Assembly (NCBI GenBank): GCA_026770705.1
Contig: JANJGN010000026.1
Span: 34,844,001-34,908,000 of the forward strand
Length of the DNA stretch: 64,000 nucleotides
Source: Isurus oxyrinchus
Taxonomy: Eukaryota
Direction of reading: 5' to 3'
The notes under the pieces are model-generated. The model saw nothing but the letters and a program-made list of their open reading frames with translations, did not search any database and had not been told where the DNA came from. The number at the start of each line of letters is the position of its first letter. The stretch's first letter is position 1. Shown in pieces: positions 18,211 to 63,172 of this stretch. The translations under genes were made by a program, and so were the position numbers.

Positions 18211-18920
18211 TACTACTGCTTAAAAAGGCTTTGAAATGTTCGATCAGCCATGATTGTATTGAATGGCGGAGCAGCCTTGACGGGCTGAATGGCCTTCTCC
18301 TGTTCGTATGTTCCTTTGCTTCCAAATCCCGTACTATTGGCATTAATCTGAAGCAGACACTAGCCACCTAGCCAAGTAAGGTAACGAGCTTCCACTTACT
18401 CATTGTGTATGTTGTGTACATCTGCCAGGATATTGGTAATGTCACTGGACTCCCTCATATTGTAAACTGGCCCTCAGTTGCTGGGCCAGGAAAGATGCCA
18501 AGTCTGAGACGCTGGCCTTCAGGTCAGAAGTTTAATTGAGGTCCCGCCAGTCCGCTCAGGGCGATGTTAAACAATCTCCGGAATATTGGAGTAAGAGCGG
18601 GGAGGGGGGATTCTGCTGGTGTCCTGGGCCCACATTCCACCTTTAACAAACACCACCCAATACAAACACATGCACTGACCTCCCAGTTCATTGCTGTGGG
18701 GAAAGGAAGGAGGCAGCACAACTGGCAGAAAGAAAAGCTCCCCTCCCCCACTCATGTACACCAGAGTATTATGGGAGGGGCTTTCATATCCGGATCACAA
18801 TCCAAATGTGGAGTCAGAAAATTGCAGCCTCCTTTTATAAACCTGCCTCTTATTCACACAGCACTTAGCCAGCGACCCGGGAACCGTGCTGCCCATCAAT
18901 GATCTCAGCTAAACTGCCCT

Positions 18921-19022
18921 GTGCAAATCAACTCGGCCCCGTGAAAATATTTCAGTCCAGCTCTGAGGTCCGGTCTCCCAGTGCAGTCCAGGGCTGCGGT
19001 CTCTAGCTTCCCGTCATATAAA
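18921..19022 (+). promoter_or_regulatory. NAR-TCR V promoter
   Basis: Octamer-like GTGCAAAT 18921-28, CGTCA 19012-16, TATAAA 19017-22 ending 24 nt before the leader ATG at 19047. Confidence 0.55.
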
Positions 19023-19046
19023 CCCTCAGCTCCAGGCAGCAGAATA

Positions 19047-19520
19047 ATGGGAATCCTCCTTGTTTTCACCCTGTGTGTCTGTTTACCCCGTGAGTACCGA
19101 TCAAACAAACCGACATTGTGTGGGTTTAATATAAAGCTGCCCGAGTCCATCCCAATTACAAACACTGTCTGGGGTTTTGACCTAGTTCTCTGGTTCGGCT
19201 TTGATGGTCCATTGAACTCTCTCTGTTTAATTTCCAGGCTCTTTCAGTCAGTCAGTGACACAGACCCCGGCAGCGGTGACCAGGAAGGAGTGCCAGTCTC
19301 TCACCATCACCTGTGTTTTCTCCGGTGCTTCGTGGTATGATTTCCAAACGGGACATTTCTTCAAACAAACCCAGACCGGGACAGAGCGGGAGCGGATCTC
19401 CAGCGGGGGGAGATTTGTTGTGTCGGTGAATAAAGCACAAAATACATTTTCGCTGGAAATTGAGGAATTGAGAGTTGAGGACACCGCCACCTATTACTGT
19501 AAAGCTCATTACTACAGATA
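19047..19520 (+). CDS. NARTCR: NAR-TCR V gene segment (leader exon 19047-19089, V exon 19238-19520)
   Basis: MGILLVFTLCVCLP(R)SFSQSVTQTPAAVTRKECQSLTITCVFSGASWYDFQTGHFFKQTQTGTERERISSGGRFVVSVNKAQNTFSLEIEELRVEDTATYYCKAHYYRY. Open frame, GT/AG phase-1 intron, IgNAR-like CDR2 deletion (ERISSGGRF), YYCKA, extra FR1 Cys. Confidence 0.95.
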
Positions 19521-19558
19521 CACAGTGATGGGCCTCGGCTTCCTGCGATACAAAATCT
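19521..19558 (+). other. RSS of NAR-TCR V (22-nt spacer)
   Basis: CACAGTG 19521-27, 22 nt, ACAAAATCT 19550-58. Confidence 0.9.
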
Positions 19559-19884
19559 CACTGCAGGTTATCAGAGAAACAAATGAAAAAGTGGTGTTAA
19601 TTCTGCAGTTAAACCCCCACAGTTCCACCTCACACCGTCTGCCCCACATTCTAGTTTATAATGGAATTGGATTATTGCCGTTAACATCTTGAGTTTTATA
19701 AATGCCGAGTGCGGGCGGATGGTGATGTCTTTCCCGGGATTGGTGTCAGTGAATCGGGATTGGGAATGATTGATCCCAGTTACAAACCCCTACCACCAGA
19801 TGTGATCCTGGTCTAACAGCTGGAACCAGGAACCACAGTCCCCGGTGTTTAACTAATGTCCCCACATCTCACCAAGTACCCGGG

Positions 19885-19957
19885 GGGTTTTATACTGACT
19901 TGTAACACTGTGTGGGAGTATGGGGAAGTCACAGTGGGAAAGACCTGAGCAAATACC
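19885..19957 (+). other. NARTCR: NAR-TCR D segment (19913-19929, TGGGAGTATGGGGAAGT) flanked by 12-RSS on both sides
   Basis: GGGTTTTAT-12-CACTGTG (19885-19912) and CACAGTG-12-GCAAATACC (19930-19957); open in all three forward frames (WEYGE, GSMGK, GVWGS). Confidence 0.92.
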
Positions 19958-20265
19958 TCTGTACGGTCACAATATAAATTCTCCTGGTCTGGATAGTGAA
20001 TTGTTGTGTTATTATCGCTGGAATCTAGCTACATTTCATCGTAATTTCCATCATTCAGTTATCTTTTTTAATATTTTTCTCGCTTTATATGAAGCGAAAA
20101 TCTCGTCCCCGGGACCATTTCCTGAGAGCTCAGGGCCTCACAAAGAACAGTTTGAACCGACAGAGACTTTAGAACATGGAATATTGTTTGTTTATTTCAA
20201 TCCGTTGAATAGTTGGGCAGTTTCTACTGTCTGATGATGATTTCCAGGCAGGTTGAGGTGTCGGT

Positions 20266-20354
20266 GGTTGTTGCACCGGGGACACTGAGAGTGGAGTCAC
20301 TGTGGAAATATTATTATGCGGATGGATCCGGGACGGTGGTGACTGTCACAGCCG
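20266..20354 (+). other. NARTCR: NAR-TCR J segment (20305-20354) with 23-RSS
   Basis: GGTTGTTGC-23-CACTGTG (20266-20304); KYYYADGSGTVVTVTA; phase-1 donor G|GTAAGT at 20355. Confidence 0.93.
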
Positions 20355-21229
20355 GTAAGTGACTCCAAACCCCGCCGGGTTACAGCCTGTCCTCTGTCAG
20401 TTTATTACTGATGTCAGTGGGGTCTGGGGGGATGTGAGAGTTGACAGAATCTGGGGCGTTATCGGTTTAACGGGAACATTGGGGACATGATCAACATCAC
20501 AGACTCTCACAGTCTGAATCGCTTTTAATGAGCACAGGTTGTTGACACTCAGGACTCCACACCCGGTGTTAACTGTGACCGAGGGAGCTCTGTCTGTCCC
20601 TGAGAGCCCAGGAGCGGGGTAACAGAGCTCTCTCCTGGGCAGCAGATTGCAGTTCAAGCCGCGCAATGTGAATGAGGTACCGGGTGAATAAATTCAACAC
20701 AACTGAGGCCAGTTCAGATACCTTCCAGACCTGACCCGGGAGAAAAATGGGAGAGTGACACAAGGGGCCTCAGATATATGAGATCCTGATGTGAGTCCAG
20801 GTTGAATTCTATATTTGACAATCAGTGACTAAAATTAGTGACATTGTCCCCGCCATTTCTTTCAATTGCCTTTATAGAACCAATCACTTTCCTCCTTTTC
20901 CGTCCTCAGAACGAAATGTGGAAGTTTGGAACTGCAGACACTTCTCTATATTGAATGTAGATGTTTGAGAGATGTGATTGCTGTAATTTATCTGTATCCC
21001 TGATTACTGTGAACTGAAACAGCACAGTGCAGTGAGACAGTGAGGATGATGTATTAATCGTATAAAGGAGAGGAGGGTCATAAGGAAACAATTATAAGCT
21101 AGGAGAATGATCATTTAGAATCGGCAAGAAAGAAATAATCGAAAGGGAGAGAACGATTGGATGATTTCTGGGCGATTTTCAAAGTAACATTCGACTCGGT
21201 GGTGGGTGAGGTTTATGGAGGGAAGGACT

Positions 21230-21790
21230 GAAATAGACTCCAGTCCGGAATGCTGTGTAAAGTTTTGGTCCCCTTTTAGAAGGGAGATCAATCTGCATTG
21301 GAAGGAGTGCAACAAAGGTTCATCAGACTGATTCCTGAGATGAAGGAATTGTCTAATGGGAAGAGATTTAGTCGTCTCGGTCTGTATTTCCTAGAGTTTA
21401 GAAGAATGAGATGTGATCTCATGAAAACATATAATATTCTGAAGGGACTTGACAGGGCAGATTCTGGGTCGGTGTCTCCTCAGACTGAGGAGTATATAAC
21501 TTGGGGTCACAGCTTCAGTATAAAGAGTCATCCATTAGAACTGAGAAGGAAAATAATTCTTCAATAGAATCACTGTTGTTAATCTGTGGCATTCCGTAAC
21601 TCAGAGAGCGGTGGGTGTTCATAATCTATGTGCATTCAAGACAATATTTGATAGGTTTTCAGACATTAAAGGGATCAGCGATATGGGGAGAGTGCGGGAA
21701 TGTGACGTAGCGGTTGTAAATCAGCCAGGATATTACTGAATGGCTGAGCAAGTTTGAAAGGTGATATGGGGGCTCCTGCTTCTATTGATT
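21230..21790 (+). mobile_element. CR1 LINE 3' fragment
   Basis: EGVQQRFIRLIPEMK...RRMRCDLMKTYNILKGLDR followed by a CR1-type 3' UTR. Confidence 0.8.
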
Positions 21791-23265
21791 GGATGCTCTG
21801 CTTTGATTTCTTACACTCCTGAGGGAAGAAACAATCAGCAACAATCCACATCTCTCTGGGAAGATTGAACAGGCTGGGTCTCTTTTTTCTGGAAAACAGA
21901 ACCACAAGGAGAATCCATGGAAATCTTTCAATATTGAACGGGTTTAATCTGGACAAATTGAATGTAAAGCAATAGGCGTCAACATATGAAACTAAATAAC
22001 AGAACAGATAAAACATTTAAAACAAATGAATTTAAAGAAAGGCAGGTCAGAATGTGGAACTTGCTGCCTCAGGGAGAGGTTGGAGATTGTATTGATATCG
22101 TAATTGGAACACTTGAAAATACAGGAGGGAGAACGGAACAGACCAACACAGGGAGCTGGATGTAAATGGTCAATTAGATTTCTGGTGGGGTCAAGCGGGA
22201 ATTGATTATATACACAGGCTGAATGGCCCATTCCTCTTCCTCATTCTTCTTCCTCAATAATGTAAAATTGAGAGAAAACTCCATCCAGTAATCCCCGGAG
22301 AGATCAGTCAGTGGGCGGGAAGAATTGAAATCGTCAGAGAGCCGGAAGAGGCAGTTCCCAGTGAGTAACAGTAAAACCACTGCGGAAACTGAATAACTAA
22401 ACCCAGCCGACAACTCAGAGAGATTGGGACAAGTTCCCACGGTTGCAAAAAAACGCAAACAGCACAAAATAAATGTGAAATAAAGGGAATGTGAAATTGA
22501 AGAAATAAAATAAAATTAATTGCACCTATTTGATATTAAGCTGAACTGGAGAAAATAGGACCCTATTGTTAGAACATAAAGAAATAGAGCAAAAGGCAGA
22601 TAGAAATTCCTGAACAGTTTTAAACCGCAGTAAATGATTGACCTTTCACCACGAGAGTTGCTCACTCTCGGTTTGGCCCAATCGGTGCGGATGAATCCCA
22701 TCAGTTTGTGTTGGATCTTGCTGTGCACGGTCATGCCACACAGCTGTGTTTCTCTTCGACAAACATGCTTTTTTTGGAAACTGGTTGCCTCGCTGAACAT
22801 GAAATGCTCTCTCGTGTTTGTGTCTCACCAAGGGAAATAGAAACGGGAATGTAATATAATTCATAGAATTATCCAGCACGGAATGATGACATTCGGCCCC
22901 TCGTGTAGGTGCTGACCCTTTAAAAGTGCAATCCAATTGTTCCCACTGCCCATGAATTTTCTCCATAGCTTTATATTTTTATTTACATTTCCAGCACAGA
23001 CCTATTACCCGTTTGAAAGTCACTATTGAATCTATCCCCAACACCAATTCAGACAGTCCAGTCCTGATCGGAAGAACTCGCGATGTAAAATAAAGCATCA
23101 CATCATTCCCCATTTGGTCATATTTTCAAAACAGTGAACACGGTTCAAGTAGGCTTCCAGCAAATAAAATTACAGCAAAAAGCAGAGCTATTCACGTGAT
23201 TGACAGATTCTCCTGGACAAACAGTGGCTGAACAAAACGATAGTGTTCATTTTTTTATCCTACAG

Positions 23266-23565
23266 ATTCCAGTTCCATAATTTCCCGGATTTCGCCTCTA
23301 CAAACGTCTGCTGTCGGTGACACCGTTACTTTAAACTGGGAATATTCAGGGTTCTGCGCAGTACACTGGTACCGTCAGTCCTTAGGACAGGCTCCGGAAT
23401 ATCTGCTTCAGGGACAAACTTCAGGAGAGGCGACTAAAGAAAACGCTGCCGGGGGGAGAATTTCTGCTTCCATCGATTCTACCGAGAAAATCAGCCGGTT
23501 AAAGATCTCCAAACTGCAACTGAGCGACTCCGCTGTTTATTACTGTGAACTGAGTCAGCGCACAG
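23266..23565 (+). CDS. Leaderless supporting TCR-delta V of the NAR-TCR cassette (open frame, Cys23->Trp)
   Basis: Acceptor CCTACAG| at 23265; (D)SSSIISRISPLQTSAVGDTVTLNWEYSGFCAVHWYRQSLGQAPEYLLQGQTSGEATKENAAGGRISASIDSTEKISRLKISKLQLSDSAVYYCELSQRT. No leader exon seen upstream; phase matches the NAR J donor (G+AT=Asp); CDR1 Cys at 23355-57. Confidence 0.9.
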
Positions 23566-23780
23566 CACAGTGATACAGAGCACGAAGAGAGCTGTACAAA
23601 AACCTCAACATGGTGCACAGTGATACAGAAACCGGAGGGCGCTGTACAAAAACTTAAAACATGCTTGGAGAACATACACACAGTGATAGACAGCACAGAG
23701 AGAGCTGTACAAAAACCTGAACATGGTGGGGATTACAGACACACTGTGACACAAGGCACGGAGAGAGTTCAAATAATTGT
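23566..23780 (+). repeat. Tandem array of 23-RSSs (3 intact + 1 degenerate)
   Basis: CACAGTG-23-ACAAAAACC 23566-23604; CACAGTG-23-ACAAAAACT 23616-23654; CACAGTG-23-ACAAAAACC 23679-23717; CACTGTG 23742 with a homologous spacer but no nonamer. Confidence 0.95.
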
Positions 23781-23793
23781 CAATTTTCGGGTT

Positions 23794-23959
23794 NNNNNNN
23801 NNNNNNNNNNNNNNNNNNNNNNNNNNNNNNNNNNNNNNNNNNNNNNNNNNNNNNNNNNNNNNNNNNNNNNNNNNNNNNNNNNNNNNNNNNNNNNNNNNNN
23901 NNNNNNNNNNNNNNNNNNNNNNNNNNNNNNNNNNNNNNNNNNNNNNNNNNNNNNNNNNN
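23794..23959. other. Assembly gap
   Basis: Run of N. Confidence 1.
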
Positions 23960-29000: not shown

Positions 29001-29893
29001 TTAACGTGGTGACGATTGTGATCTATCCTGAGGAAGGTGTGGCCTCTCCAAATGTATCACTCAGTACCTGGTGTCCATGGCAGTGATGGATCTCCTAGTT
29101 GTTGTGAGCGCTGTGATATTCAATCGGACCATTGGCATTTATGTTCCCGTTAGTTTTATGGCCATGCCTCCAGCCTGCGCTAATCTACTCAGCCATGAAG
29201 AGTTCTGTCCGGTTAACCGTCGCTTTCACCTTTGAACGATACATTGCCATTTGCTTCCAAAAGCTGAAAACAAATTATTGCACCGAGAGAGTGGCGGCTG
29301 TGGTTATAGAAACTGTCGGTCTGTTAAGCTGTTTAAAAAGTGTTCCCTGGTACTTTATGTATGAGCCACTCTATATAATGAACAATGTACCGTGGTTTTG
29401 TAATGTAATATCAAGCTTCTACACTTCACTCGCATGGACAGCCTATGATTGGTTTGCAGGTGTTTTAAATCCAGGTCTGCCATTCCTCCTGATCCTGTTG
29501 TTCAATGCTCTGACCGTCAGGCACATCCCTGCGACCAATGCAGCCCACAGGAGACTCCGGGCTCACAGCAGCGGAGAGAAGCAGAGTGATCCAGAGATGG
29601 AGAACCGGAGAAAATCAATTGTTTTACTCTTTACCACCTTGGGAAGCTTCATCCTGTTGTGGATGACGTATGTTGTAGATTTCCTGTCTGTGAAAATTAC
29701 AAACGAACCTTATTTCACAGGTTCCAATTTCGATGACCCCAAATTCATTCGCCAAGAATTTGGAAACATGCTTCAGCTCCTGAGCTGCTGCACCAACATG
29801 TGTATTTATGCAGTGACCCAGAGAAAATTCAGAGAAGAGCTGAAAAATGCAGCAAAGTATCCTTAGAATCTAATTGTGAAGTTAGTAAACTAG
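29001..29893 (+). pseudogene. GPR139/GPR142-like class A GPCR pseudogene (main exon)
   Basis: After acceptor 28999-29000: VNVVTIVI / S*GRCGLSKCITQYLVSMAVMDLLVV, LTVAFTFERYIAIC, LPFLLILLFNALTVRHI, SDPEMENRRKSIVLL, NMCIYAVTQRKFREEL. Frameshifts, a CGA->TGA stop, and a probably premature TAG at 29864. Confidence 0.85.
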
Positions 29894-32846: not shown

Positions 32847-33481
32847 AGCAGGGTGTGTTGCTGAGTCAGAGAGTATTTATACAAAATGAACAGATTTCAC
32901 AAGGTAGTGCCTGTGATCTTTAAAGCAAACCCCACATGTAGATGATCCTTAGAATATTTCCTTAATGCTGGAATGTTTTCTGTCACCATTAACAATCCAG
33001 AGTTTGCTGGCGACAACAAACAGACCAGGATTAACAGGCCCGCTCCCCACGCCCTCCCCCCCAGCCCCATCTCCACAAGTGCAGCCATTCTCCTATTAGG
33101 CCAATGACTGTAGTCCAGCTCGCGGTGTTTCCAGTCAGTGTCAGTCAGCTCACGACCGATGGATCTCCCAGGCCCATGGAGACACAAGGAAGTGAAGAGA
33201 GAGCATCCTGAGACACGACAGCAAATTATTGGGGATGGGGATTAGAATGCGTGTCTTCGAATCTGATTCTGTGATCGTCTCTAGGTCGAACTGGATTCTA
33301 CAGTTTGCTTTCCGGGCACTTCTGGAAACAATTGATGACAGTTAGATCCGAGGTTAATTTGGCTTCCTCTTGGTGTGTGTTTGAGCGGCTGACAGCGTCG
33401 GTGCGCCTTGCAGACTGGAACTCCTTTCCACAGCCTGAACGCAGTTTTTGTACAGGGGTGAGATTGCTTTCCATCACTGTG

Positions 33482-33947
33482 AGTCTAAGAGCGCAGTAAT
33501 ATACGGCAGCTTCAGTCAGCCACAGACTCCAGATGGTCAAGCTGGTGAATTTGCTCGCGGTTTGGAGCTTGACTGAGAAACGGCTTTTGGCAAAATCAGC
33601 TTTATCTTCAGCACCGGCCGAGTGTTTCCACAATATAAACTCGGGCTGCGAATCTGGGTGTTTCCGGTGCCAGTATAAGTAATAGCCGCTCGTTGTAGTG
33701 TCATAGGTACAGCTTAAAGTCACCGCATCACCTTCTGTCTTTAGACCTGAGGACAGCAGCTGAGTGACAGAATCTCCATGACTCAGATCTGAAAAACATG
33801 TTCAAGCTGAAAAATATCAGGTCGAGGACTGGTTAAAATTCACGTTTAAATAATTCTTGAAAAATGAGAGAAAATATAAAATACGTGTGGTCCACAATTA
33901 TCTGTCAGAAATGCTCCCCAAACAACCCAGATGCGGAGTAGCCGCAT
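33482..33947 (-). CDS. TCR alpha/delta V, open V exon (33788-33482) but leader donor mutated GT->AT
   Basis: Leader MRLLRIWVVWGAFLT 33947-33902 followed by ATAATT; DLSHGDSVTQ...TLSCTYDTTTSGYYLYWHRKHPDSQPEFIL...AVYYCALR; RSS CACAGTG-23-ACAAAAACT (33481-33443). Confidence 0.85.
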
Positions 33948-35443
33948 TGTCGCTGTCCGCTCTGTGAAAGGGGAGTTGGTTATTTGAAGATACCCGTTCT
34001 AAACCCCAGCCTTAATAACCTGCTGTCCTGTCTCAGGATGTTCTCATCTCAGTACCTGTGCCCCCAGTGGTGATGTCTGGACGCCAGTTGGTGAGCTGGC
34101 TCCCAATGCATTGAAACATCCCGAACTGGGCTACAGTCAGTGTTCTTATAGGTGAAATGGTTTCACAGTTAGACACGTGAGGCAGGAGACTGAAACCCTT
34201 GTTTAGTTACTGTAACCGGGAACATAAAGTTGCTGATAGTGTTTGTTATTCTGGTGTGAATCCTTCAGCTCCAGTTCCAGTAGTCTTAACAACAGGACAC
34301 AGGTAACCGTGACTCCAGTGAGGTTTCCCTCCTCAATCAATAAAATAGTGAACTAACAGTCATTTCGCATTTTTCCAGAGTGGTTTTTAGATTCGTTATG
34401 TTGAAAGATGAAATCTGCTGTTACTGAACATACAACTGAGTAAAATAAATAATAAACTCTGGCTGTAATTTAATCAATGTTACCAGAACTGCCCTCTTTT
34501 TTAAAGTTTGCATTTAAAATTCTGTTTCAGTTTGTTCTATTGAATTCTGACATCAGTTGTGTCCGTGATGATTAATCTAAGCATCCATAATCTACAAAAT
34601 TAGAGGATTAGAATTTGTGACGAGAGAGAATTTGGGGTCCGGCGCATCTGTGCATTTTTTTTGCAATTTGCCTCTCATCAGTCTAAAGTGCTTGGGAACA
34701 GAGCGCAGCGAGCGGGTTCAAAGCCTCCAGAGTGAAGTGTCGAGCGCGTTTTCATGAACAGGAACACAACACCAGCAGGACTGTTTTTACAACTTTAGCA
34801 GGGTTAGGAAAAAGCAGTGGAGCTGAAAAAGAAATAAACCACATAAGTTTTTAGTTTGTCTTGCGTTCCTTTAACACCCATTTCCACCATTGGTGCAGTT
34901 AGAATTATTGCGATCGGACGCCCTCTTTTGGGCGCTCTGAGAAATTTTCGGGCGCCGTTCGTCAGGTGACAAGAGATTCTATGTTTCAGCACTGACCTGA
35001 TGTGACAATTCATTGTCGTATTGTTCGTTTGAGCGGTCCCGACTTAATATTCTGAGGAGAAGCAAAGGTTTTATATAATTAAACTAAAGGCTGCAACAAG
35101 GATGGGGGAAGTGTTCTGAGTAAAAAGTGAAGACAAGCCATGAAAGGCAAGGGAAAGGCAAAATACATTAAAAGGCAAAAGGCCAGTTCAGGTTCGACAG
35201 GTGTATCTGTAAATTTTATTTTTATTATAGATGTGAGCTTTTGAAATAATTTTACAAGTGGAACTCGCCTGTTCTTGTTCAGTGTTGTGCTTCATTTCAG
35301 TTTTTAAAAATCCCTGTGAATCTCACGTGGTGGCTGATTTAGTGCATTCGTTTTATTGGTGCGGCAGCGCCCTCTAGTGACTCTAACCGGAACTCCCAGT
35401 GTGGGTTTTTGTACAGTATCCGCTGTACCTCTGCAGCACTGTG

Positions 35444-35902
35444 GGGCTCATGGCACAGAAATACATGGCGGTGTCCGAGAACAGGGCATTGCTAGTCGTT
35501 AACTCAGTAGCTTTGGCAGCTTTACTAAACGTAGAAGAGAATTGGTCTGTAAAGTTTGGCTTCCGCTTTGCTATCCCCCCCACAGAGGTAAATCACAAAC
35601 TGTGGGGGCTACCCGGGCTGCTGACTGTAACACTGGGCGAGGATCACTTGTTTTCAAGGTGCAGTTTATGACGTCATTCCCTTCCACTTTAACTGTCATT
35701 TCAGGTACCGACTGCTCCACTGAATCGTCATGACTCCATTCTGACATAGACAATGACGATATTTAACGTTGCATCATCAGGACAAGCATTTTGCCATAAA
35801 TAATGCTTGCGATACGGCAGCCAGGGGGAGAATTACTTTGTACTGGGAAATATACTTACTGAGAAGTGACATAATAACGAATGGTCTGAGATAGTCCCAC
35901 AT
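35444..35902 (-). pseudogene. TCR alpha/delta V pseudogene
   Basis: Leader MWDYLRPFVIMSLL 35902-35860; exon 35740-35444 with a frameshifting deletion at CDR1/FR2 and a TAG; ends DTAMYFCAMS; RSS CACAGTG-24-ACAAAAACC (35443-35404). Confidence 0.9.
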
Positions 35903-36754
35903 GATGCTCCCTGCATCTGTTACTCTGTTGACCACAAATCCTCTGTCAGGGTAGAAATAGAGGTCTCCTCCCCACTGGACTCCTGATCCAACCAATGTCA
36001 AACAGGGAAAAGCGGCAACAATCTCTCCAATGAAACAGGGCAGCCAAGGCAGGTCAGAGCGAGAACAGCAGAAGGAAGCTGTGCGCGGGGCTACTGCAGG
36101 CAGCGTTGTCACATGTAGGATTTATCTACAAGGAACTGAACTCAATAATAATCACAGCATCGAAAATTATATAACTATTCCTCTCTGTAAGAACTGTAGC
36201 TTAATCTTCATTCCATATTGATGGCCAGCAGGCTCGCAAAAGCAGAGTCAGAGTTAGTAAATTATTCAATAATAAGCGTCATCTTCATCAGCGATGCGGA
36301 TTGAAACCAGGACCGCATACATGAGCAACAGGTTTCGGAGTGGTTCTGAATTAATGTATAAGATAGTAGAAAAAGCTTTAAACGTTTATATTAGTGAGGG
36401 AAAACGGAAATGTATGCAGTTTTCAGAAAAGACTGAAGACACGAATGATAAGAAACATTTAGGAAGGGAAAGGTGTCGAAAACCAAAAAGGGGAAATAAG
36501 GCAGCGCAGACCGATTTTTCAATCTCATATCTAATAAAAATACAACGTGCAATCACAAACCAATATGACTGTGCAAGTGGACCTCACCTGCTGCTGCTAT
36601 TGAGTCCTGTGTTTTGTTGCAATTTTCAGAATCTCCCTGTTACTCTCACTGTGGAAACTGAATTACCGGTGTGTGCGCGCCCTCTGGTGAACACATGGTG
36701 GTACTGCCAGTGAGGGTTTTTGTACGGGATCCGCTATATCTCTGCAGCAGTGTG

Positions 36755-37259
36755 GGCTCCATGGCACAGAAATACACGGCGCTGTCGGGTGTCAATGTGT
36801 TACTGATCGTTAGCTCGGTAATCTTGTTATTTTTATTCAACGTGGAAGAAAACCGATCATTGAGGTGGGTGTCCCTTTGCACACTCTGGCCAATAAGACG
36901 AAACATGTACATTGGAGGTTTCCCGGGGCGCTGACTGTACCAGTGTGCATAAGGGTTAGAATCACTTGTTTTGAAGGTGCAAGTTAGTGTGACATTACTT
37001 TCCTCTTCAGCAGTTATTTCGTCAACCGGCTGCTCCACTGTGTCTTGATGACTCCATTCTAACAGAAATAATAATAAAAACGACAATCAGTATCAGCCCC
37101 ATACTAATCAACATAATCATCATCAACACCATCATTATTATTTGACCAACAATAACATCTGGGTAGTAGCAGCTAGGAGGAGAATGGAGTTTTACTGGGA
37201 AGGAAACACTTACTGACAAGTGACATAATGATGAGGATAGGAGCTAGACTGTTCCCCAT
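36755..37259 (-). CDS. TCR alpha/delta V, apparently functional (leader 37259-37214, V 37058-36755)
   Basis: MGNSLAPILIIMSLV(K)WSHQDTVEQPVDEITAEEESNVTLTCTFKTSDSNPYAHWYSQRPGKPPMYMF...DSAVYFCAME; RSS CACACTG-24-ACAAAAACC (36754-36715). Confidence 0.92.
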
Positions 37260-42887: not shown

Positions 42888-43291
42888 ATGAGTGAAATAG
42901 TGACTTTCAATTTATTGATTTTAGGTGAGTGTTTTGTGCTGAAAATCGGTGTTACAACTTTTTTTTGCTATTTCTTTGTTTCTCTTTTCCCTGTCCTTCA
43001 TTCTCAACAGTGATCGGCGGAGAGGCTGCGATTCACCAACCACAGCAGATGTTTGCACAAGAGGGACAATCGACTGAAATCCGGTGCAATGCAACGACAA
43101 GAGGTACGGAGAGCACCCACTGGTACAGATAACTGGAAGGCCGTGGCCCAAAATTTATTCTATCTGCTATCAGCAGCAACTCCAGTGACGGGCGGTTCAC
43201 TCTCTTTATTGACCCAACAAGAAGTTATAACATTCTCGGTATTGGCAGAACCATGGTGTCAGACGCTGGAGTGTATCACTGTGCAACGAAG
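42888..43291 (+). pseudogene. TCR V pseudogene (single in-frame stop)
   Basis: Leader MSEIVTFNLLIL 42888-42924; exon from 43011 IGGEAAIHQPQQMFAQEGQSTEIRCNATTRGTESTHWYR*LEGRGPKFIL...DAGVYHCATK; TAA 43130-32; RSS CACTGTG-23-ACAATATCT 43292-43330. Confidence 0.9.
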
Positions 43292-43914
43292 CACTGTGAG
43301 ACAAAGACTGAGTGCTTCAATACAATATCTACTGCAGGCTCCTATCAGACAATCTCAACGCGTCTACCTGCTCTCCGAAATGTTTTGACTCACATATTGT
43401 TGCACATCTATCCTCAACATGTTGTTCAGACTGTCCTGAATATACATACTCTTTTATGGCATGTGGTTGTACATCTCAATTCATCCTAGAACAAAGCAGT
43501 TATTCAGGCTGAGCTGAGTATTTTTACTCCTCTGCGCGGTAGAGTTAAACATGCTCCACCTATTCTGTCAGAAATAATTTTTACTGTATTCGAACTTACG
43601 GCGCCATAAAAATCCCTTTCAATGGTCACCATCCCAAAGAGATTCTGTTCCCCTCACTACCCTCCACAAGTATAAGAGGCACGTGCTGATCTTTAGACAA
43701 CTAACCGCGGGTGAAGGAAGCAGACAATCAAAAATATTACGTCGTGAGTGAAGAATGCCCATTTCCAACCAATCTAAAAGCAGAAAGCCCACCTGACTGA
43801 AAATTTAACAGGGTGGCTCTGATATTAATTAGACTATTCAATGTGTTTCCCTCAGTTCTTGTTCTCCTGATGTGAGTTATGTGTCGTTTTCCTATTGCTA
43901 TCTGAACTGCAGGG

Positions 43915-44326
43915 ATGCAGTGACTGTACCACTCGTCATTCTGGTGCTGCTAACTTGTAGATACGAGATCTGTACTCAATAACTCGCAGTGTTTATTTTC
44001 TGCAATCACCTTGCTCCCGTGTCTCATTGTTTGGATGTTTGTACAGGTCGATGTCACTCGACCGAGTGCTGCAGTCTCCTGCTTCGAGAATAGTCCTCAG
44101 GGGGGATTCGGTGCAGATAAACTGCAACTATGATGTGTCCGATATTTGCGCTCCTGCATTGGTACAAGTGGAAATCCGGCCTCAGACTGGACTGGTAATA
44201 AAGCAAGCATTCGCTGGCAGGGAGAAAAGCGGCGATGTGAATTGGGCCTTTCCACTGTGGAGAAACAGGGTGATTGAGAGCATGGAGAGTGTGGATCCCT
44301 CTCCGTATTACTGTGCGTTAGATCCC
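43915..44326 (+). pseudogene. TCR V pseudogene, paralog of the 47.5-kb V
   Basis: Broken leader from 43915; exon from 44047 ...GDSVQINCNYDVS, frameshifts, YYCALDP; heptamer CACACTG 44327-33 with a spacer homologous to the 47.9-kb RSS. Confidence 0.88.
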
Positions 44327-47300
44327 CACACTGAGAGGAAAGGCGGCAGTCACTCATAAAAATCTGCTCCTGTTTGCAGTTACGGAACAGCTGCAGCAAT
44401 GTCTCCAATAGCATAGGGCAGGCAAGATGGTACAGAACGGGAGCAACAAAGAGAGGCAGTGAGGGGGCCTGCCATGGGTAATGATAGCTCAAAGTGTGTA
44501 TTTAACTCCTAGTTGAGTACTGTTTTGATCAAGAATCTTGGTCACATCATAAAGTATCGGACTGAGAAGGCAGTCACTCAGTGAGTGCAGTCTTTAGTGT
44601 GAGGAAAGCTTTCCCATTACATTAATGTGGGGTTATATTGAACGGTGACTTTAATGGGTGTTGGTCTATTTCAAGGCGATGTTTGGAAGCTCATTGAAAG
44701 CGTCAACATAATCCTATTGGAATATTTGCATTTACACGAAAGTATTCACACTGCGCTACAGTTACCCTCTGCACCTTAAACAAAGAAAAAAAAAACTGTC
44801 TGAAAGAATGACATTGTGATAACGCTAGAACAACTTTTGAGTTTTGCCCAGAGAGGCGAAAGGGAACATTCCCCTTGTTTATCGCAGCATATTGTTAATG
44901 AAACTCCACTCTGTGTTAATCATCTCAGTCTGTTGAGTTATAGTGATTGAAACGTTTCTAGAGACACATGTAAGCCAGACCAGATAAGGACGCCATATTT
45001 CCTTTCCTCAGGGGCTTTAATGAAACAGGTAGGTTTTTACAACAATCGGTGATAGTGGTCGTGGTCAGCATTACTGATTTATAACCCAGAGTTGCTCTTT
45101 GAACGCGTGTCCCCAGAGCATTTCCCTGGGCCCCTGGATTTCCAGTCCAGTGATACCAATTTGCCACCATCTCTCCCGAACATGGGTCACCTACGTTCAA
45201 TGCTACATTTTGTCAGCTTTGATATCATCTCTTACCAGTAACATTCAAATGGGTAGGTAATTCCTCGGAGGGGGATTACAGCCCCTTCTCCAAATATCTG
45301 TGAAATTAGAGCTGGATGCCCATGTTCATTGTTTGTACAGGGCTCCAGTCTGTCATTGTGTTTTCCTCTCATATTCCCCTGTTTCAAGTGATTCCTTTCT
45401 CAGCCTCAGTGAAAATTAATCCCGGGTGACGGAACTCCTTCTTTCAGAGGGAGCAATGACTGAGGCTCCGAGAGGCCGCTGCCCCTCTGCCTGACACTCA
45501 TCAGCTTGATCACCTCTACAAAAGATTTTCACTGACCTACACACTATATATTCATTGTCAAAAGTGTACAGATATCTTAGAATTCCCACCCCAACAGCCA
45601 AGGTTCATGACATCCCGGAAAAAGATAATGCCTTTTTAGTGCCCAGATTGAAATACTGGTAATTATGTTCAGGTCCTGAATTTGAGGTGGAATCCACAAT
45701 CTACTGATTCTGAAATCAGAGTCAAGTTGCTTCAGCTACTAAACTGCTGCAAGGTTTAAGATAGTCCATTATGACTACAATTGTGCCATAGCATTCATTA
45801 ACGCAGTTGCTGTTAAGCTTTCCTTTGCTAATTTCACGAATAAAAACGTCAAAAGCATAATTATAGAACGTTTGATTAATAAAAAATCAGTTCAAATAAT
45901 TAGGAAATGTCACAGCAAAGATGGAAAATATTCTTATCACCAGAACCATGTCCTCACTCTGAATAAAACTATCCAATTAGCTCCCCTCTCCACTTTCTCC
46001 AAAGGCCCACACATCTTTCACTTTCATGTATAAGTACAATTTCCTTTTGAAAGTGAAGCTGATTATGCTTCCTTCTCCATACCAGGAAAGGTACTTCAGC
46101 TCATTACAACTCGCTGCATAAAAAAAATCTAATTTACCTCTTTAGTATTTACGAATTGTCCGAACTCCGAGTACTCTACCTATTATTCCTTCTGCCAGAA
46201 ATATCAATATCTCACTAACAACTCTGTTAAAAGCCTTCATAAATTTAAACACGTCCATTACATCATTCTTTCCCATTCTCTACTCTAGGCAAACCAGTCA
46301 CAGTTTCTCTAATCTCTTAACATAACCGAGGCCTATCATCCATGGTATAATTCTCGTAAACCTATTCTCGACCCACTCCAAGGCTAGGACATGCTTCTGA
46401 AAGTGTGGATTCAAATAAACTCAATCATTCTTCTCCTTCAGATAATTTCGAATGATAAATGTTCTCTTAGAATTAAGCTGAGCAGTAATCTATGTAATAC
46501 CAATATTGGTAACAATGTGATGTTGCTTTCTCCAAAGTGCTCAGCAAAATTGGTTTCTCTATCATTCAGGTGTCAGTAGATCACTGTCGCCACCTGCTGA
46601 CGTACAGCTTCTTCTCTAGGCCCCGGAGTTTATCGGAGATGGTTCAGAATTCTTTCCGCAACCACGTCCTCTTATTGATTGAAGTTCATGCACAGGAGTT
46701 TCTTAGAGCAAATCACGAGGGGCAAGAGATCAAGAGGAATTATATGCAGACAGACCAAAATCGTTATCATAAATTATGAGAAATATTCCATGGGAAAGTG
46801 AGCAGAAATGGAAAATGATAAACTGACACTGTCCTGAATTTGGTTTCTTTTCCCGCATCACATCCTTTGCTCATTTGTGTTAAAGCTGCGAGGGCAGACT
46901 TTCATGCCCAGCTTTCGTTCACTCCCTGTTATCTATAGCCCACCCTATCCCTCGCCCTAGGGGGGTTTGAACCAGCTCCACGGTCAAAGCTCCCAGGAAC
47001 TGTGCACAGCTGTATGATGAATTACCGAAAAGCGCCAATGCGTTTCTCCTTCAATTCTGTCCCGACACAAATTCAAAAATCTTACAGTTATGGGAATTTG
47101 AATATACAATTCCAGCACGAGAACTGATATGATAGGATTTCATTCCTTAAGACAATCTTTGTCCAGAGTTTCAAATGTTTGCAAAAGCCCGGGAGCCACG
47201 TTTGTCCCTTTGGAGAATCAGTGCCGCAGAGTTATTGCGTTCCGCTCACTTCCCACCACAAGGAGTAAAGGAAATTCCTGGCGTTTCGACAATTGACATG

Positions 47301-47504: not shown

Positions 47505-47939
47505 ATGCATTACCCGGTACAAATGAATCTACTCCCTGTCATTTTATTGCTGATAACTTGTAAGTATAGGGGATAAGTCTGTAACCTGTAGAGAGTGTCT
47601 ATTTATACTCACGTTGCTCCAATGTCTCATTGTCTGAATGTTTTTACAGGTCGATGTCGGTCGGAACAAAATTCCCAGTTTCCCGCTGCGAGAACAGTCC
47701 AGAGCGGGGATTCGGTGCAAATAAACTGCAGCTATGACATGTCCAGCACTTACGGAATGCACTGGTACAAACAGAAACCCGGTCAGGGACTGGAGTGGAT
47801 AATGAAGCGAATATTGGATGGCGAAGAGAGAAAAGACCGATTCGATTTGGAACTTTCCACTGCAGACAAACGGGGCCAGTTGGTTATTGAGAAGACGGAG
47901 AGCGCGGATACTGCTGTGTATTACTGTGCCATAGAGCCC
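47505..47939 (+). CDS. TCR alpha/delta V, apparently functional (leader 47505-47559, V 47650-47939)
   Basis: MHYPVQMNLLPVILLLIT(C)RCRSEQNSQFPAARTVQSGDSVQINCSYDMSSTYGMHWYKQKPGQGLEWIM...DTAVYYCAIEP; RSS CACACCG-23-ACAAAAACC 47940-47978. Confidence 0.92.
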
Positions 47940-48369
47940 CACACCGAGAGGAGAGGCGGCAGTTACTGAACAAAAACCTCCCTCCTGTTTACAGCCCCGG
48001 AACAGCTGCAGCGATCTCTCCAATCACAGGCAAGGCAGGTCGGAACGAGAGAAGCAAAAGGGAGGCTTTGAGCAGGGCTGCGGTGGGCTTCATAATATCC
48101 TTCAGATAGCGGCTTTGATGAGAGATTGTTCCAGTCACAGCATAAAGGATCCGAAAGCAGAAACAGACACTCACTGTACGCGGTCTCGTTGTGAGAAAAT
48201 CTTCAGCATTGCTTAATTGTAGGATTATAATCAGTTGAGTCGATTCGGACATTTTACTAAATATGTGTGCATGTGATTCTGCTGTGTGACGGCTGATCCG
48301 AAATTTTAACAGTGATAATTCTTGACTCTGTCGCTCTTCAGTTTGGGAAATTATCTGTCAGGTAATACA

Positions 48370-49826: not shown

Positions 49827-50354
49827 ATGTTTCTGATAATACTGGCGGCACTGTTGGACAGTAAGTACTGGATTAAGTTAATCAAGGCAGATTAGTAGAT
49901 TAAGGTACAGCGATTGCGGTAGTATTTAAAACAATTAACGATTAGAAATATCCACATGATGGACAGCTGGGTAGATAGTAAGTTCCACAAAGTCACGGAG
50001 CTACAAACACTTTAGATCAACACTGTTTAACCGCTTGATATTTCATTCCTCTGCCTCACAGACGGATTCTGCGCTGATCCAGTAACTCAGTCCCCAGGCT
50101 CAATAACGGTGTCAGAAGGGGTTTCGGTGCAGTTAGACTGTGAATATACAGATCGGAATATGTACGACATGCAATGGTATCGGCAGCAGACGGCACAGCC
50201 ACCAAGTTGGATTATTACCAATGCCTTAGCACAGAAGAAAAATGAAATTTCAGGACGATATCTGGCGGCTGCTGACAAGTCTCAAAAGAACGGTTACCTC
50301 AATATAAGCGAATTGAGTGTGGAGGACGGGGCAGTGTATTACTGTGCAATGAGG
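49827..50354 (+). CDS. TCR alpha/delta V, apparently functional (leader 49827-49860, V 50062-50354)
   Basis: MFLIILAALLD(N)GFCADPVTQSPGSITVSEGVSVQLDCEYTDRNMYDMQWYRQQTAQPPSWII...DGAVYYCAMR; RSS CACAGCG-23-ACAAAAACC 50355-50393. Confidence 0.93.
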
Positions 50355-50739
50355 CACAGCGTTTGATCGCAGCTAGAAGCCCGTACAAAAACCTCAGCGG
50401 TTTTTGCTCCCGGGTTCCAGAGAAGGGAAACAGACAGGTCTATTCACCGCAGGTTTATTGCCCTGTTTGTCCTTGTCCAAATCCACAGAGAAGCAGTTTT
50501 GGGAAATATGTAAAATTATCTCCATGCCACCATTTATAGTGGAAATAGTTCCGAACTTATCCTGAATGTGGGTTTTCCAACAGAGGTAATGGTGGGTGGA
50601 TTGATCATCTTATTCTACTTATTTAGACAAGCACTTTATTTAATTTACATTGTATATATCATTATGTTAACTTTATTCTTGCTTTGGAAGCTGTTCCTTT
50701 TCGCTGGGAAAAAATTCAGAAATTGGTTTCTCGAGAACG

Positions 50740-50969
50740 CAAGATCAACGATTTTGCGTCAACATAACTCTACGTTCTCTGCACATGAACTTATATTCTT
50801 GAACCGGCAACTCTCCAGTAGAGCTCCCGAGTATTTCTTCCTCATATTCAGTGATGAAAGAGTTGACGGAAGATTTGAAGTATCTGTGGACCGTGGGAAA
50901 GGCTCTGCTACTCTCACTGTTCACTCAGTTCAGTTCTCCGATGCTGCCGTTTAGTACAGTTCGGTGAAG
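50740..50969 (+). pseudogene. Degenerate TCR V remnant
   Basis: NRQLSSRAPEYFFLIFSDERVDGRFEVSVDRGKGSATLTVHSVQFSDAAV*Y; decayed RSS CAGGGGG-23-ACCAGAACT 50970-51008. 5' boundary uncertain. Confidence 0.75.
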
Positions 50970-51354
50970 CAGGGGGAGGCAAAGAGTTGAGGAAACTGTA
51001 CCAGAACTACTCGACATGGGGACTGGGGACACAGTCAGGACATGGGCTTTAAAAACGAGATCGATAAAATTCAATTCTGCAAAGAAAAAGCAGCTCATCA
51101 TCCGAGTGATTTAATGGAATGAAAATATTTTTATTTGTAATAACATAATATTCAGATTATCTCTTTGTACAAAATAAATCTCACATGGAAAGGATCTTTC
51201 CTCTTGTAGGCGAATCTAGAACTTGGGGTCACTTAAAATACTGACAGAGATTAAGACAGAGATGAGAAGATTTTTATCTGTCAAAAAAGTAGTGAGTCTT
51301 TGGAACTCCCTTCCTCAAAGGGCAGGTGTAGCAGTGGCTTTGATTGCTTTCAAG

Positions 51355-58358: not shown

Positions 58359-59363
58359 GACATTGTTGCAGAGATATAGCGGATCCCGTGCTGAAACCCT
58401 CACTGGGAGTTCAACTGTGATCTCGCACCGATAAAGAGAAACAATAATTCAATCACCGCAAAAAGAGTCAAAGGGACATTCCTGAAAGATCATAACAAAA
58501 CACAACACTCAACAAGAAGAGGTCAGGAACACTTGCAGAATTATATTAGATTATTTAAATTCGCTTTTGTATTATAACTGACCCTCATAGGTTTATTTAC
58601 TTTAATTTACACAATGTATTTTACTGCAGTTTCAGTGCCTGTCTGTAATATTGAACAACCATTTTTTAATCTCCCTTGTCAGTTTCCTGGAGCCTTTTTG
58701 CTAGAGCTGTTCACAGGGTTTATTTGATCAGAGTGTGTTGCTGGGTCAGAAAATGTTTATGCACAATGATCAGATTTCACAAGGGTGCGTTCTTTAAAAC
58801 AAACCCCAAGTACAGATTGAGCTTCAGAATGTTTCCTTAATGCTGGAATGTTTTCTGTCACCAATAACAATGCCGAGTTTGCTTGTGACAATGAACAGAC
58901 CGGGATTTCATTCCCCCAACCTCCGTCTCTACAAGTGCAGCCATTCCCCTATCAGGGAACTGACTGCAGTCCAGCTCGGGGTACTTCCCTTCAGTGTCAG
59001 ACAGCTCACCACCGACGGACCCCCAGGCCAACGGAGACAGAAGGAAGTGAAGTGAGAGCATCTTGAGACGCGACAGCAAATTATTGAGGGTGGGGATTAG
59101 AATGGATGTCTTCAAATCAGATTCTGTGATAGCTCTCTCGGTCGGTTAGAGTTCTGCAGTTTATCCTGTCGGTCGCTCCTGGAAACGGTTAGTAACAGTT
59201 TGATCCGAGGTCAATGTAGTTTTCTCTCGGTTTGTGTTTGAGAGGCCGACAAGCTGACACTGCATCTGCCCGAGATTCTCTACAAACCCCAACAGACAGG
59301 AGCCCTTATTCACAGTGCCAAGGCAGTTTTTGCACAGGGGTGAGACAGCTTTCCATCACTGTG

Positions 59364-59830
59364 AGTCTGAGAGCGCAGTAATACACGGCAGCGTCAGTCA
59401 GCTACAGATCAGAGATGGTTAAACTGGTGAATTTATTCGAGGTCTGGAGCTCTGCAGAGAAACGGCTTTTAGCAAAATCTGCTTTATCTTCACCACTACT
59501 CGAGTGTTTCCACAATATAAACTCAGGCTGTGAATTTGGGTGGTGCCGGCACCAGAACAAATAATAGTTGCTCATTGTCGTCTCATAGGTACAGTTTAAA
59601 GTCACCGCTTCTCCTTCTGCCTTTCCCTCTGAGGACAGCGGCTGAATGACATAATCTCCATGACTCAGATCTGTACAACATGCTCAAACAGAAAATGGTC
59701 GGACCGAGATCATTTTAAAATTCACGTTTACGGCATTTTTTGACAAATAGGGGAAAATAGTAAATGTGTCTGGCTCATATTTACCTGTCAGAAATGCTTC
59801 CCACACAACCCAGATGCTGAGGAGCCGCAT
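59364..59830 (-). pseudogene. TCR V pseudogene (single stop), paralog of the 33.5-kb V
   Basis: Leader MRLLSIWVVWEAFLT 59830-59785 with intact GT; exon 59670-59364; TAG at 59404-02 (ISDL*LTDAAVYYCALR); RSS CACAGTG-23-GCAAAAACT (59363-59325). Confidence 0.92.
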
Positions 59831-61322
59831 TGTCGCTGTCCGTTCTGTAAAACGGGGAGTTGGATATCTGAAGATACCCGTTCTAAACCCCACCCTGAAC
59901 AATCTGCTGTCGCGTCTCGTGATGTTCTCACCTCACTCCCTTCTGTCCCCAGCGGTGATGTGAGGACGTCAGCTGTGAGCTGGCTCCCAATGAGTTGAAA
60001 AATCCCGAGCTGGGGTACAGTCAGTGTTCTAATAGGTGAAATGGTTTCGCAGTTAGACTAAAACCCTTATTTAGTTGTTGTAACCGGAGGCATGGGTTTG
60101 CTGATTTAGTTTGTTTATTCTGGCGTCAATTCTTCAGCTGAAGTTCTAGTAGCCTTAACAACAGGATACAGGAAACAGTGACTCCAGTGAGATTTCCCTC
60201 CTCAATCAGTGAAGTAGTGAACTAACAATAATTTCGCCATTTTGCCAGAGTGTTTTTTGGATCCGTCATATTGAAAGGATGATATTTGCTGACACTGAAC
60301 ATACCCTGAGTAAAAATTAATAATAAACTCGCGTGTAATTTAATCAGCGTTGCCAGCACTGACTTTTTCTGTGATTTGCATTTAAATTTCTGTTTCAATT
60401 TGTTCTGTGAATTCTGACATTCTTCGTGTTTGTGATAATTAAGCTAACCATCCATTAGATACAGGTTTGGAATTTGTGATGAGAGAGAATTTGGGGTCCG
60501 GCGCTTTTTAAGCAACTTGTCTCCTATCGCTTTAAAGTGGTCGGGAACAGAGAGCGAGAGCGGGTTCAAAGCTTCCAGGATGAGCTGCAGAGCGGGTTTT
60601 TATTAACAAGAATTGAGTACCAGCAGGACTGTTTTAATAACCTTAGCTGGGGTTAGAAAATGGCTGTGGAGCAGAAAAAGAAATAAACCAGAGACATTTT
60701 TAGTTTGTCTTTCGCTCCTTTAATATCCATTTTCACCACCGATGCAGTTAGAATTACTGCGACCTCACGCCCTCTAGTGAATATTCTGAGAAATGTTCAG
60801 ACGCCGCTGGTCAGATTGTGAGAGATTCTTTACTTAATCACTGATTTGATGTGACAGTTCATATTTGTAGGATGTTCAGTTTCAGCGGTCCTGACTTAAT
60901 ATTCTGAGCAAAAAAAACAAACGTTTTATATTACTGAACTAAAGACTGTAAGAAGAAATAAAAAGGGCAATGATTAAATAATAAAGCCAGGCGATGAGAG
61001 GAAACAGACTGGGAAAATATCGGGAAAGGCAGATCTTTAAGATTCCACAGGTGTATGTGTAAATTTAATTTTTATATAAATGTGAGTTGTTGGTATGATT
61101 TTACAAGTGGACGTCCACTGTTCTTGTTGAATGTTGTGTTTCATTGCAATTTTAAACGCCTATGTAAATCTCATTGTGGTGGCTGAATTATTGCTTCCGT
61201 TTTTATTAAATTTATTGAATCATTTCTTTCCGTTTTATTGTTGCCTCAGCACCCTCTAGGGACGCAAGTTGGAGCCGGCGTGGGTTTTTGTCCGTGATCC
61301 TGCATATCTCTGCAGCATTGTG

Positions 61323-61789
61323 GGGCTCCAAGGCACAGAAATACACGGCAGAGAGCAGGGTTTTGCTAATCATTACCTCAGCAGTTCAGATAGTCTTGCT
61401 AAAGCGTTGAAAGAATTGTTGTGTAAAGTCTGGGTTCCGCTTTATTATCCCTCTGCAGAGATAAAACACAAACTGTGGAGTCTGCCTGGGCTGCTGACTG
61501 TACCGGAACACGTAAGGGCTGGGGTGGCTTGTTTTCAAAATGCAGGGCATGGTGACATTCCCTTCCTCTTTGACAGTCATTTCAGTTACATACTGCTCCA
61601 CTGAATCCTGATTGCTCTGTTCCGACACAGATAATGACAATATTTATCGTTACTTCATCATTACAAGCAATTTGCTATAAAGAATATTTGGCATACGGCA
61701 GCCGGGGGGGTGGGGGGAAGAGAATTTTTTTTTTACATATACTTACTGAGATGCGATATAATACTGAGTGGCCTGACATATTTCCACGT
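61323..61789 (-). pseudogene. TCR V pseudogene, paralog of the 35.4-kb V
   Basis: Start ATG->ACG, acceptor AG->GG, frameshift/stop in FR3; RSS CACAATG-24-ACAAAAACC (61322-61283). Confidence 0.88.
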
Positions 61790-62634: not shown

Positions 62635-63172
62635 GGGTCCATGGTACAGAAGTGCACGGCGGTATCGGGGATCAGTACGTTTGATAAAAATAACAAGATT
62701 ACCGAGCAAACGATTAACGGATCGTTAGCTCGGTAATCTTGTTATTTTTATCAAACGTGGAAGGAAACCAATCATTGAGGTCGGTGTTCGTTTGCACATT
62801 CCGACTAGTAAGACAAAACATGTACATTGGAGGATTCCCGGGGCGCTGACGGTACCAGTACACATTAGGGCTTAAATCACTTGTTTTCAAGGTGCAGGTC
62901 ACTGTGACATTACTTTCTGCTTTTGCCGTTATTTTAGGAACCCGTTGTTCCACAGTGTGTTGGTAGCTCCATTCAAACAGAAATAATAATAACAGACAAT
63001 CAGCGCCAGCCTCCTATTGATCAACATAATCAGCAACACCGCCATCACTATTATTTTAACAACAATAACATCTAGGTTACAGCAGTCAGGAGGAGAATAG
63101 AGTTTTACTGGGAAGGGAATACTTACTGAGAAGAGATATGAAGATCAGGAGAGGAGCGAGATGGTTCCCCAC
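62635..63172 (-). pseudogene. TCR V pseudogene, paralog of the 36.8-kb V, with an internal inverted duplication
   Basis: Start ATG->GTG, acceptor AG->TG; VTVTCTLKTSDLSPNVYWYRQRPGNPPMYMF...; 38-bp fold-back in FR3; broken heptamer CAAACTG-24-ACAAAAACC. Confidence 0.9.

Follow-up and report, generated by a model that had tools for sequence, protein, structure and literature searches.

A 64,000-nt stretch of the 4.98-Gb genome assembly of the shark Isurus oxyrinchus (contig JANJGN010000026.1, hereafter C26, positions 34,844,001–34,908,000, plus strand; below, the window, in whose numbering cassette positions are given) very probably holds a germline NAR-TCR cassette of the alpha/delta locus of the shark T-cell receptor (TCR), from which two RAG rearrangements would likely be needed to build one TCR-delta chain, whose antibody-like tip would stand on a supporting V domain. 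The segments, the 12/23-compatible recombination signal sequences (RSS), the open frames and the matching splice phases are all present in the sequence. An earlier note on this DNA named the cassette correctly, and it is one more copy of an already known system, reportedly described by Criscitiello 2006. Interest beyond the window cassette alone comes from two features: the recurrent loss of a canonical cysteine in its supporting V domain, and joined exons with dead leaders in sister cassettes.

Anatomy and identity of the cassette

All elements of the cassette lie on the plus strand. An octamer-like motif, TGCAAAT (18922–18928), agrees with seven of the eight letters of the octamer and is found 5' of many paralogues; together with a TATA-like box, TATAAA (19017–19022), it may serve as the promoter. 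The 43-nt leader exon (19047–19089) comprises 14 codons plus 1 nt and ends at a phase-1 GT donor, and a near-identical intact leader accompanies 34 of 37 open, non-joined NAR-V exons on C26. The NAR-TCR V exon of 283 nt follows (19238–19520; Pfam V-set, E 1.4e-10), with an A–B loop Cys (TGC, 19291–19293), canonical Cys codons at 19312–19314 and 19498–19500, and Phe where the Trp of WYRK is expected. Its RSS has a 22-nt spacer (19521–19558). The 17-nt D segment (19913–19929) is open in all three frames and has a 12-spacer RSS on either side (19885–19957 with both), and the 50-nt J segment (20305–20354), preceded by a 23-spacer RSS (20266–20304), ends at a phase-1 GTAAGT donor. An acceptor at 23266, 2,911 nt past this donor, keeps the frame through a G+AT (Asp) codon and opens the leaderless supporting TCR V exon (23266–23565; Pfam V-set, E 7.9e-12), which remains open to 23565 and carries a Cys in complementarity-determining region 1 (CDR1; TGC, 23355–23357) and its second canonical Cys at 23544–23546. 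Behind it are three stacked 23-spacer RSS (23566–23717), starting at 23566, 23616 and 23679, of which the coding end adjoins the first only. Altogether, seven RSS with perfect heptamers fall within 18901–23790 (about 4.9 kb), whereas 300 Markov simulations, scored with the RSS consensus, gave 0.01 on average and never more than 1. A run of N occupies 23794–23959, starting 77 nt past the third RSS.

The earlier note had listed the promoter motifs, leader, V, D and J, and had proposed an in-frame splice from J to a leaderless V with its own RSS; every one of these elements was found in place. It had also named as grounds against its reading that the upstream V clusters with true IgNAR and that the downstream V has its own leader, and neither was borne out on the DNA. 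The J-to-V intron contains 14 ATG...GT candidates, not one of which has both a hydrophobic core and a consensus donor. In a NAR-V tree (68 rows, 85 columns, with many inner forks open) the window V groups with the NAR-TCR V known from sharks and rays (96/89), and four IgNAR-type V of this genome stand separately (97/94). The description of the cassette as complete stands insofar as all parts are there; completeness does not show function, and the supporting V lacks its first canonical cysteine (Cys23). This loss, a CDR1 two codons shorter than in most paralogues and the extra RSS at 23616 and 23679 go beyond what had been noticed before.

According to passages of PMC1845163, the hallmarks of the NAR-TCR are a tip V with a leader, an A–B loop Cys and no WYRK Trp, and an associated V with a CDR1 Cys and no leader, all of which are seen in the window cassette. 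The signals for two V(D)J events are likewise present, with RSS spacers of 22/12/12/23 and then 23, and C26 itself also carries a D (12/23) as well as J and C. The conventional mark of a functional V-set domain, Cys23 together with Cys104, is absent from the supporting V, which lowers the case for function and not that for NAR-TCR membership. Gene models of other sharks and rays have the same order of leader, V, J and supporting V, some of them joined to a TCR C, and the nearest named proteins to a paralogous exon come from the white shark and the basking shark.

If the cassette works as the known system does, a deletional V-D-J join within it would produce the unpaired antigen-binding NAR domain, and the supporting V would join through its first RSS to a D-J-C unit. 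No C exon was seen among the open frames of the window. The minus strand of C26 has such a unit, together with V genes of IgH-like type, at 29.95–29.90 Mb, 4.94 Mb from the window's supporting V; its single D (12/23), its J, no fewer than 11, and its single C1 exon fall at 29.93–29.90 Mb. Because this unit lies on the opposite strand, a join to it would be an inversion. Its C exon is read as delta-like from the layout, with a D and IgH-like V genes upstream, and no second C exon was found between D and C among 47 candidate frames. Splicing would then link leader, NAR-VDJ, supporting VDJ and C, the tip's A–B loop Cys and the CDR1 Cys in the supporting domain would pair in a disulfide between the two domains, and the chain might pair with a gamma chain while the tip stays unpaired, as hypothesized in a passage of PMC6795676.

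Stacked RSS are, judging from the paralogues, a family trait of the supporting V. Of the 53 paralogous supporting V whose 3' end could be read, 39 have two to five RSS inside 260 nt, 12 have one and two have none; the eight conventional V of the window with a detected RSS have one each. The coding end meets the first RSS alone, which contains a stop in frame, so a join at any of the others would not be productive; the extra copies may help RAG load.

A supporting V without its first canonical cysteine

At the position of Cys23 the supporting V has TGG (Trp, 23337–23339), one TGT-to-TGG substitution away from what most paralogues have. The loci fetched from this genome gave 75 distinct supporting-V stretches: 67 have Cys, three (from four loci) have TGG and five are of another state or unreadable. 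Among 51 supporting-V gene models of other species, 42 have Cys23, seven have Trp and two have Tyr. The Trp models are all seven of those from Scyliorhinus (P0033–P0035, P0038, P0039, P0043 and P0044), and in three of them Cys104 is replaced by Ala as well, which leaves these three with the CDR1 Cys but neither canonical cysteine. An assembly error was considered as the source of the TGG and rejected as unlikely, because TGG occupies this position in four other loci of this genome and Trp is present in every Scyliorhinus model. Taken together, the counts within this genome and among the models of other species indicate that the change is real and recurrent. A supporting domain with Trp23, as its sequence is written, cannot form the canonical intradomain disulfide; the recurrence in this genome and in the catshark models suggests that the change may be tolerated, and with the site masked the supporting-V tree needs two gains of Trp.

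We lean slightly towards the view that the window copy could still yield a usable chain. A strong competitor, to which we give a somewhat smaller chance, is that the cassette is an NAR-TCR pseudogene, in which the change from Cys23 to Trp has removed the core disulfide of the supporting V and T cells using it would be lost. The change is only one step away from the state of most paralogues, it leaves Cys104 without a partner, the CDR1 is shortened by two codons, and many nearby V genes and cassettes are broken. Nevertheless, the leader, the splice sites, all RSS and both reading frames of the window cassette are intact, and the pattern in the catshark, with Trp in all seven models and Ala for Cys104 in three, resembles tolerance more closely than decay. 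The fold prediction for the supporting V is still of V type (pLDDT 78), although such models are insensitive to point changes.

Several observations weigh against the main reading of the cassette, as a NAR-TCR unit for a TCR-delta chain. Most copies retain Cys23, both here and elsewhere, and several of the closest paralogous cassettes have a stop in the 3' end of NAR-V, so the window copy may be decaying. When only the starred branches of the supporting-V tree are taken, no more than one origin of Trp is required. Searches by name and by structure gave no confirmation that the C exon is delta, and a white-shark model that is possibly its equivalent is labelled TCRa in table S1 of PMC12227049. 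Finally, the rearrangement, splicing and protein of the window cassette are predictions from its DNA.

Sister arrays with germline-joined exons

Outside the window, annotation of 80 fetched loci revealed 14 NAR-V-D-J exons on C26 that are fully joined in the germ line, all of them upstream of a supporting V and 13 of them downstream of a head unit that bears a promoter; a further four joined units, truncated or deleted, are left out of this number. The arrays lie at 29.97–30.06, 31.15–31.17, 35.94, 37.89–37.92 and 38.75–38.77 Mb (L010, L018, L027, L029, L034–L036 and L056–L064). Seven arrays contain open joined exons, five with one and two with three, in the order head NAR-V-(D)-J, joined exon or exons, supporting V, and predict chains of three or five V domains. 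Aligned to the window, the array proves to be the promoter-leader-V-D-J unit copied in tandem, and in the tree the nearest relatives of the window V include several array heads; the window cassette, unlike these sisters, has no joined exon.

Eleven of the 14 joined exons are open, all running from phase 1 to phase 1, and their dN/dS is 0.48 (0.33–0.76 over 60 codon bootstraps of 10 distinct exons), with 0.79 for the three exons of a second junction type. Only one of the 11 open exons has a readable leader, compared with the 34 of 37 open non-joined V. Among the lesions are start codons altered in two different ways, a stop together with a weakened donor, and a donor that is destroyed, though the copies are related and their leader losses are not independent trials. 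All 14 also have a fixed CDR3 Cys, eight residues past Cys104, which recurs in white- and basking-shark models. Because these exons are open, leader-dead and equipped with a fixed CDR3 Cys, they are likely internal spacers; in this simplest reading of the sequences, the CDR3 Cys would take the role of the CDR1 Cys of the supporting V.

An alternative, which we consider unlikely but worth weighing, is that the joined exons are not spacers but fixed, ready-made antigen-binding tips, reached when the leader of the head is spliced past the head V. Three white- and basking-shark models (P0005, P0007 and P0008) do read as leader, joined V and supporting V, the one readable leader would fit such a use, and germline-joined tips are known from shark Ig clusters according to passages of PMC3149040. 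Yet the leaders of 10 of the 11 open joined exons are dead, by at least four different lesions, as against 3 of 37 open non-joined V, and the fixed CDR3 Cys found in every joined exon would lack a partner on a tip. Moreover, the heads at 30.06, 31.16 and 38.77 Mb have kept all four RSS, and the 8.8 kb covered by the P0007 model, roughly double the length of a plain cassette, suggest that its leader is borrowed.

The reading of the joined exons as spacers leads to a broader proposal, for and against which we see about equal chances: that lamniform sharks possess a stackable receptor, in which tandem copies of the promoter-leader-V-D-J unit underwent germline joining, shed their leaders and turned into invariant internal domains. 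A rearranged head would stand on one or three NAR spacers and a supporting V, with disulfides running from each A–B loop Cys to the CDR3 Cys of the next domain, and the supporting V, having repeatedly shed its canonical disulfide (through Trp23 here and in catsharks), would stay as a scaffold. A single-sequence fold of the white-shark three-V model reached a pLDDT of 38.

Among the sequencing runs listed in a search with a joined exon, none is recorded as RNA. Four runs of another organism, which we only guess to be RNA, were compared with one array; among the matches listed there was neither a J-to-joined nor a joined-to-supporting joint, and repeats swamped the search. Two read contigs at array borders are not counted as evidence: one, of depth 2, covers the fixed CDR3 and ends exactly at the donor, and the other, of depth 2.5 with one difference in 121, ends exactly at the acceptor and leaves 111 letters unaligned. 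One read contig extends 6 nt into the J intron and is thus unspliced or DNA.

Further array copies are found on C140, C151, C152 and C210. In a Heterodontus model (P0006) one CDR3-J string, which has no CDR3 Cys, appears twice ahead of a supporting V; this may be an independent array of joined exons. Elsewhere V and D already seem to be joined, leaving one V-to-J step (L011, L013, L030, L041 and L054, and probably L014, L015, L019, L022–L026 and L028, as well as many units at C242:370–550 kb). The tandem NAR-V units on C242 were considered as similar joined arrays and rejected, as they are split or V-D-joined, many are broken, and most have promoter matches.

The surrounding locus and related receptors

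Between 23.1 and 40.2 Mb, on both strands of C26, there are at least 67 NAR-V and at least 54 supporting-V places; these are lower bounds, with 150 candidates scored per search. About 54 such cassettes, that of the window included, are counted on this contig, and further copies on unplaced contigs may partly represent the other haplotype. A second cluster of IgH-like V, D and J with a C unit lies on C242:580–620 kb. It and the C26 unit are possibly duplicated TCR-delta units; their C exons differ at many residues.

Within the window, conventional TCR alpha/delta-type V genes lie on the minus strand (33443–33801, 35404–35760, 36715–37086, 59325–59700, 61283–61650 and 62650–63020) and on the plus strand (43014–43400, 43961–44364, 47592–47978, 50031–50393 and 50700–51050). 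Those at 33.4, 36.7, 47.6 and 50.0 kb are open and most of the others are broken. The V blocks at 33–37 and 59–63 kb look duplicated, and for some minus-strand V the best RSS score is obtained with a 24-nt spacer. A partial frame of a rhodopsin-family G-protein-coupled receptor is also found among the V genes (29117–29866, plus strand; Pfam 7tm_1, E 3e-15).

With the NAR-TCR as presented in passages of PMC1845163, PMC5931798 and PMC6795676, the window cassette shares the leader-bearing NAR-type V with its A–B loop Cys, missing WYRK Trp and own D and J, the leaderless supporting V with a CDR1 Cys, and the location among TCR alpha/delta V genes. It differs from those passages in the Trp at Cys23, the stacked 23-spacer RSS, the roughly 54 cassettes in both orientations over 17 Mb, and the joined exons of the sister arrays. 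The IgNAR V is similar in being short, in lacking a conventional CDR2 and in its cluster-type V-D-J organization. The idea that the cassette is an IgNAR cluster fragment lying by chance upstream of an unrelated TCR V is nonetheless already contradicted on the DNA and almost certainly wrong: although the best single-domain PDB matches of the window V are VNARs and the V-D-J signals obey IgH logic, the IgNAR-type V of this genome are only 43–46% identical to it, keep the Trp that the window V lacks, have no A–B Cys and form a separate clade, no C exon turns up in the window frames, and the pairing of a J with a leaderless TCR V is repeated in about 50 cassettes. The IgNAR-type V exons are on C38, C42, C100 and C26:0.67 Mb (L121, L122, L141 and L142), so that one of them shares the contig of the TCR locus.

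Tandem joined exons have been noticed already, as table S1 of PMC12227049 labels the white-shark gene LOC121270133 "NARTCR V(gj)V(gi)V". This gene matches the model P0004, has the same fixed CDR3, and shares with the sister arrays its tandem germline-joined NAR-V exons before a supporting V. The table entry is a label only, which mentions neither a head cassette nor any decay of leaders, Cys in CDR3 or role as spacer, and the two passages on "germline" in the main text of that paper concern other genes and do not comment on joined NAR-V. Another parallel is the TCR-mu of marsupials and monotremes, in which, according to passages of PMC3457774 and PMC7615758, an unpaired N-terminal V sits on a structural second V, the latter being germline-joined and invariant in marsupials, like the joined exons of sharks. 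TCR-mu differs in its independent origin, its VH-like domains and its two V domains, in contrast to the three or five predicted for the arrays; furthermore, retrotransposition is held to explain the joined V of marsupials, whereas in the joined exons of sharks the leader intron is still present. In the parts available, the literature surveyed describes neither Trp23 nor stacked RSS nor spacer exons, and a search of the supplement of PMC3964593 returned no match; Criscitiello 2006/2010 and Ott 2021, or supplements, which lie outside this survey, may cover cassette numbers, stacked RSS and joined exons.

If supporting domains with Trp23 are used, an antigen-receptor V domain works without its near-invariant disulfide, and this state has been reached more than once in sharks. 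Likewise, should the joined exons with dead leaders be spacers, the single-domain binder on some gamma-delta T cells of sharks would stand farther out from the membrane, by one to three domains. This would bear on what NAR-TCR and TCR-mu bind, the ligands of both being stated as unknown in a passage of PMC7615758.

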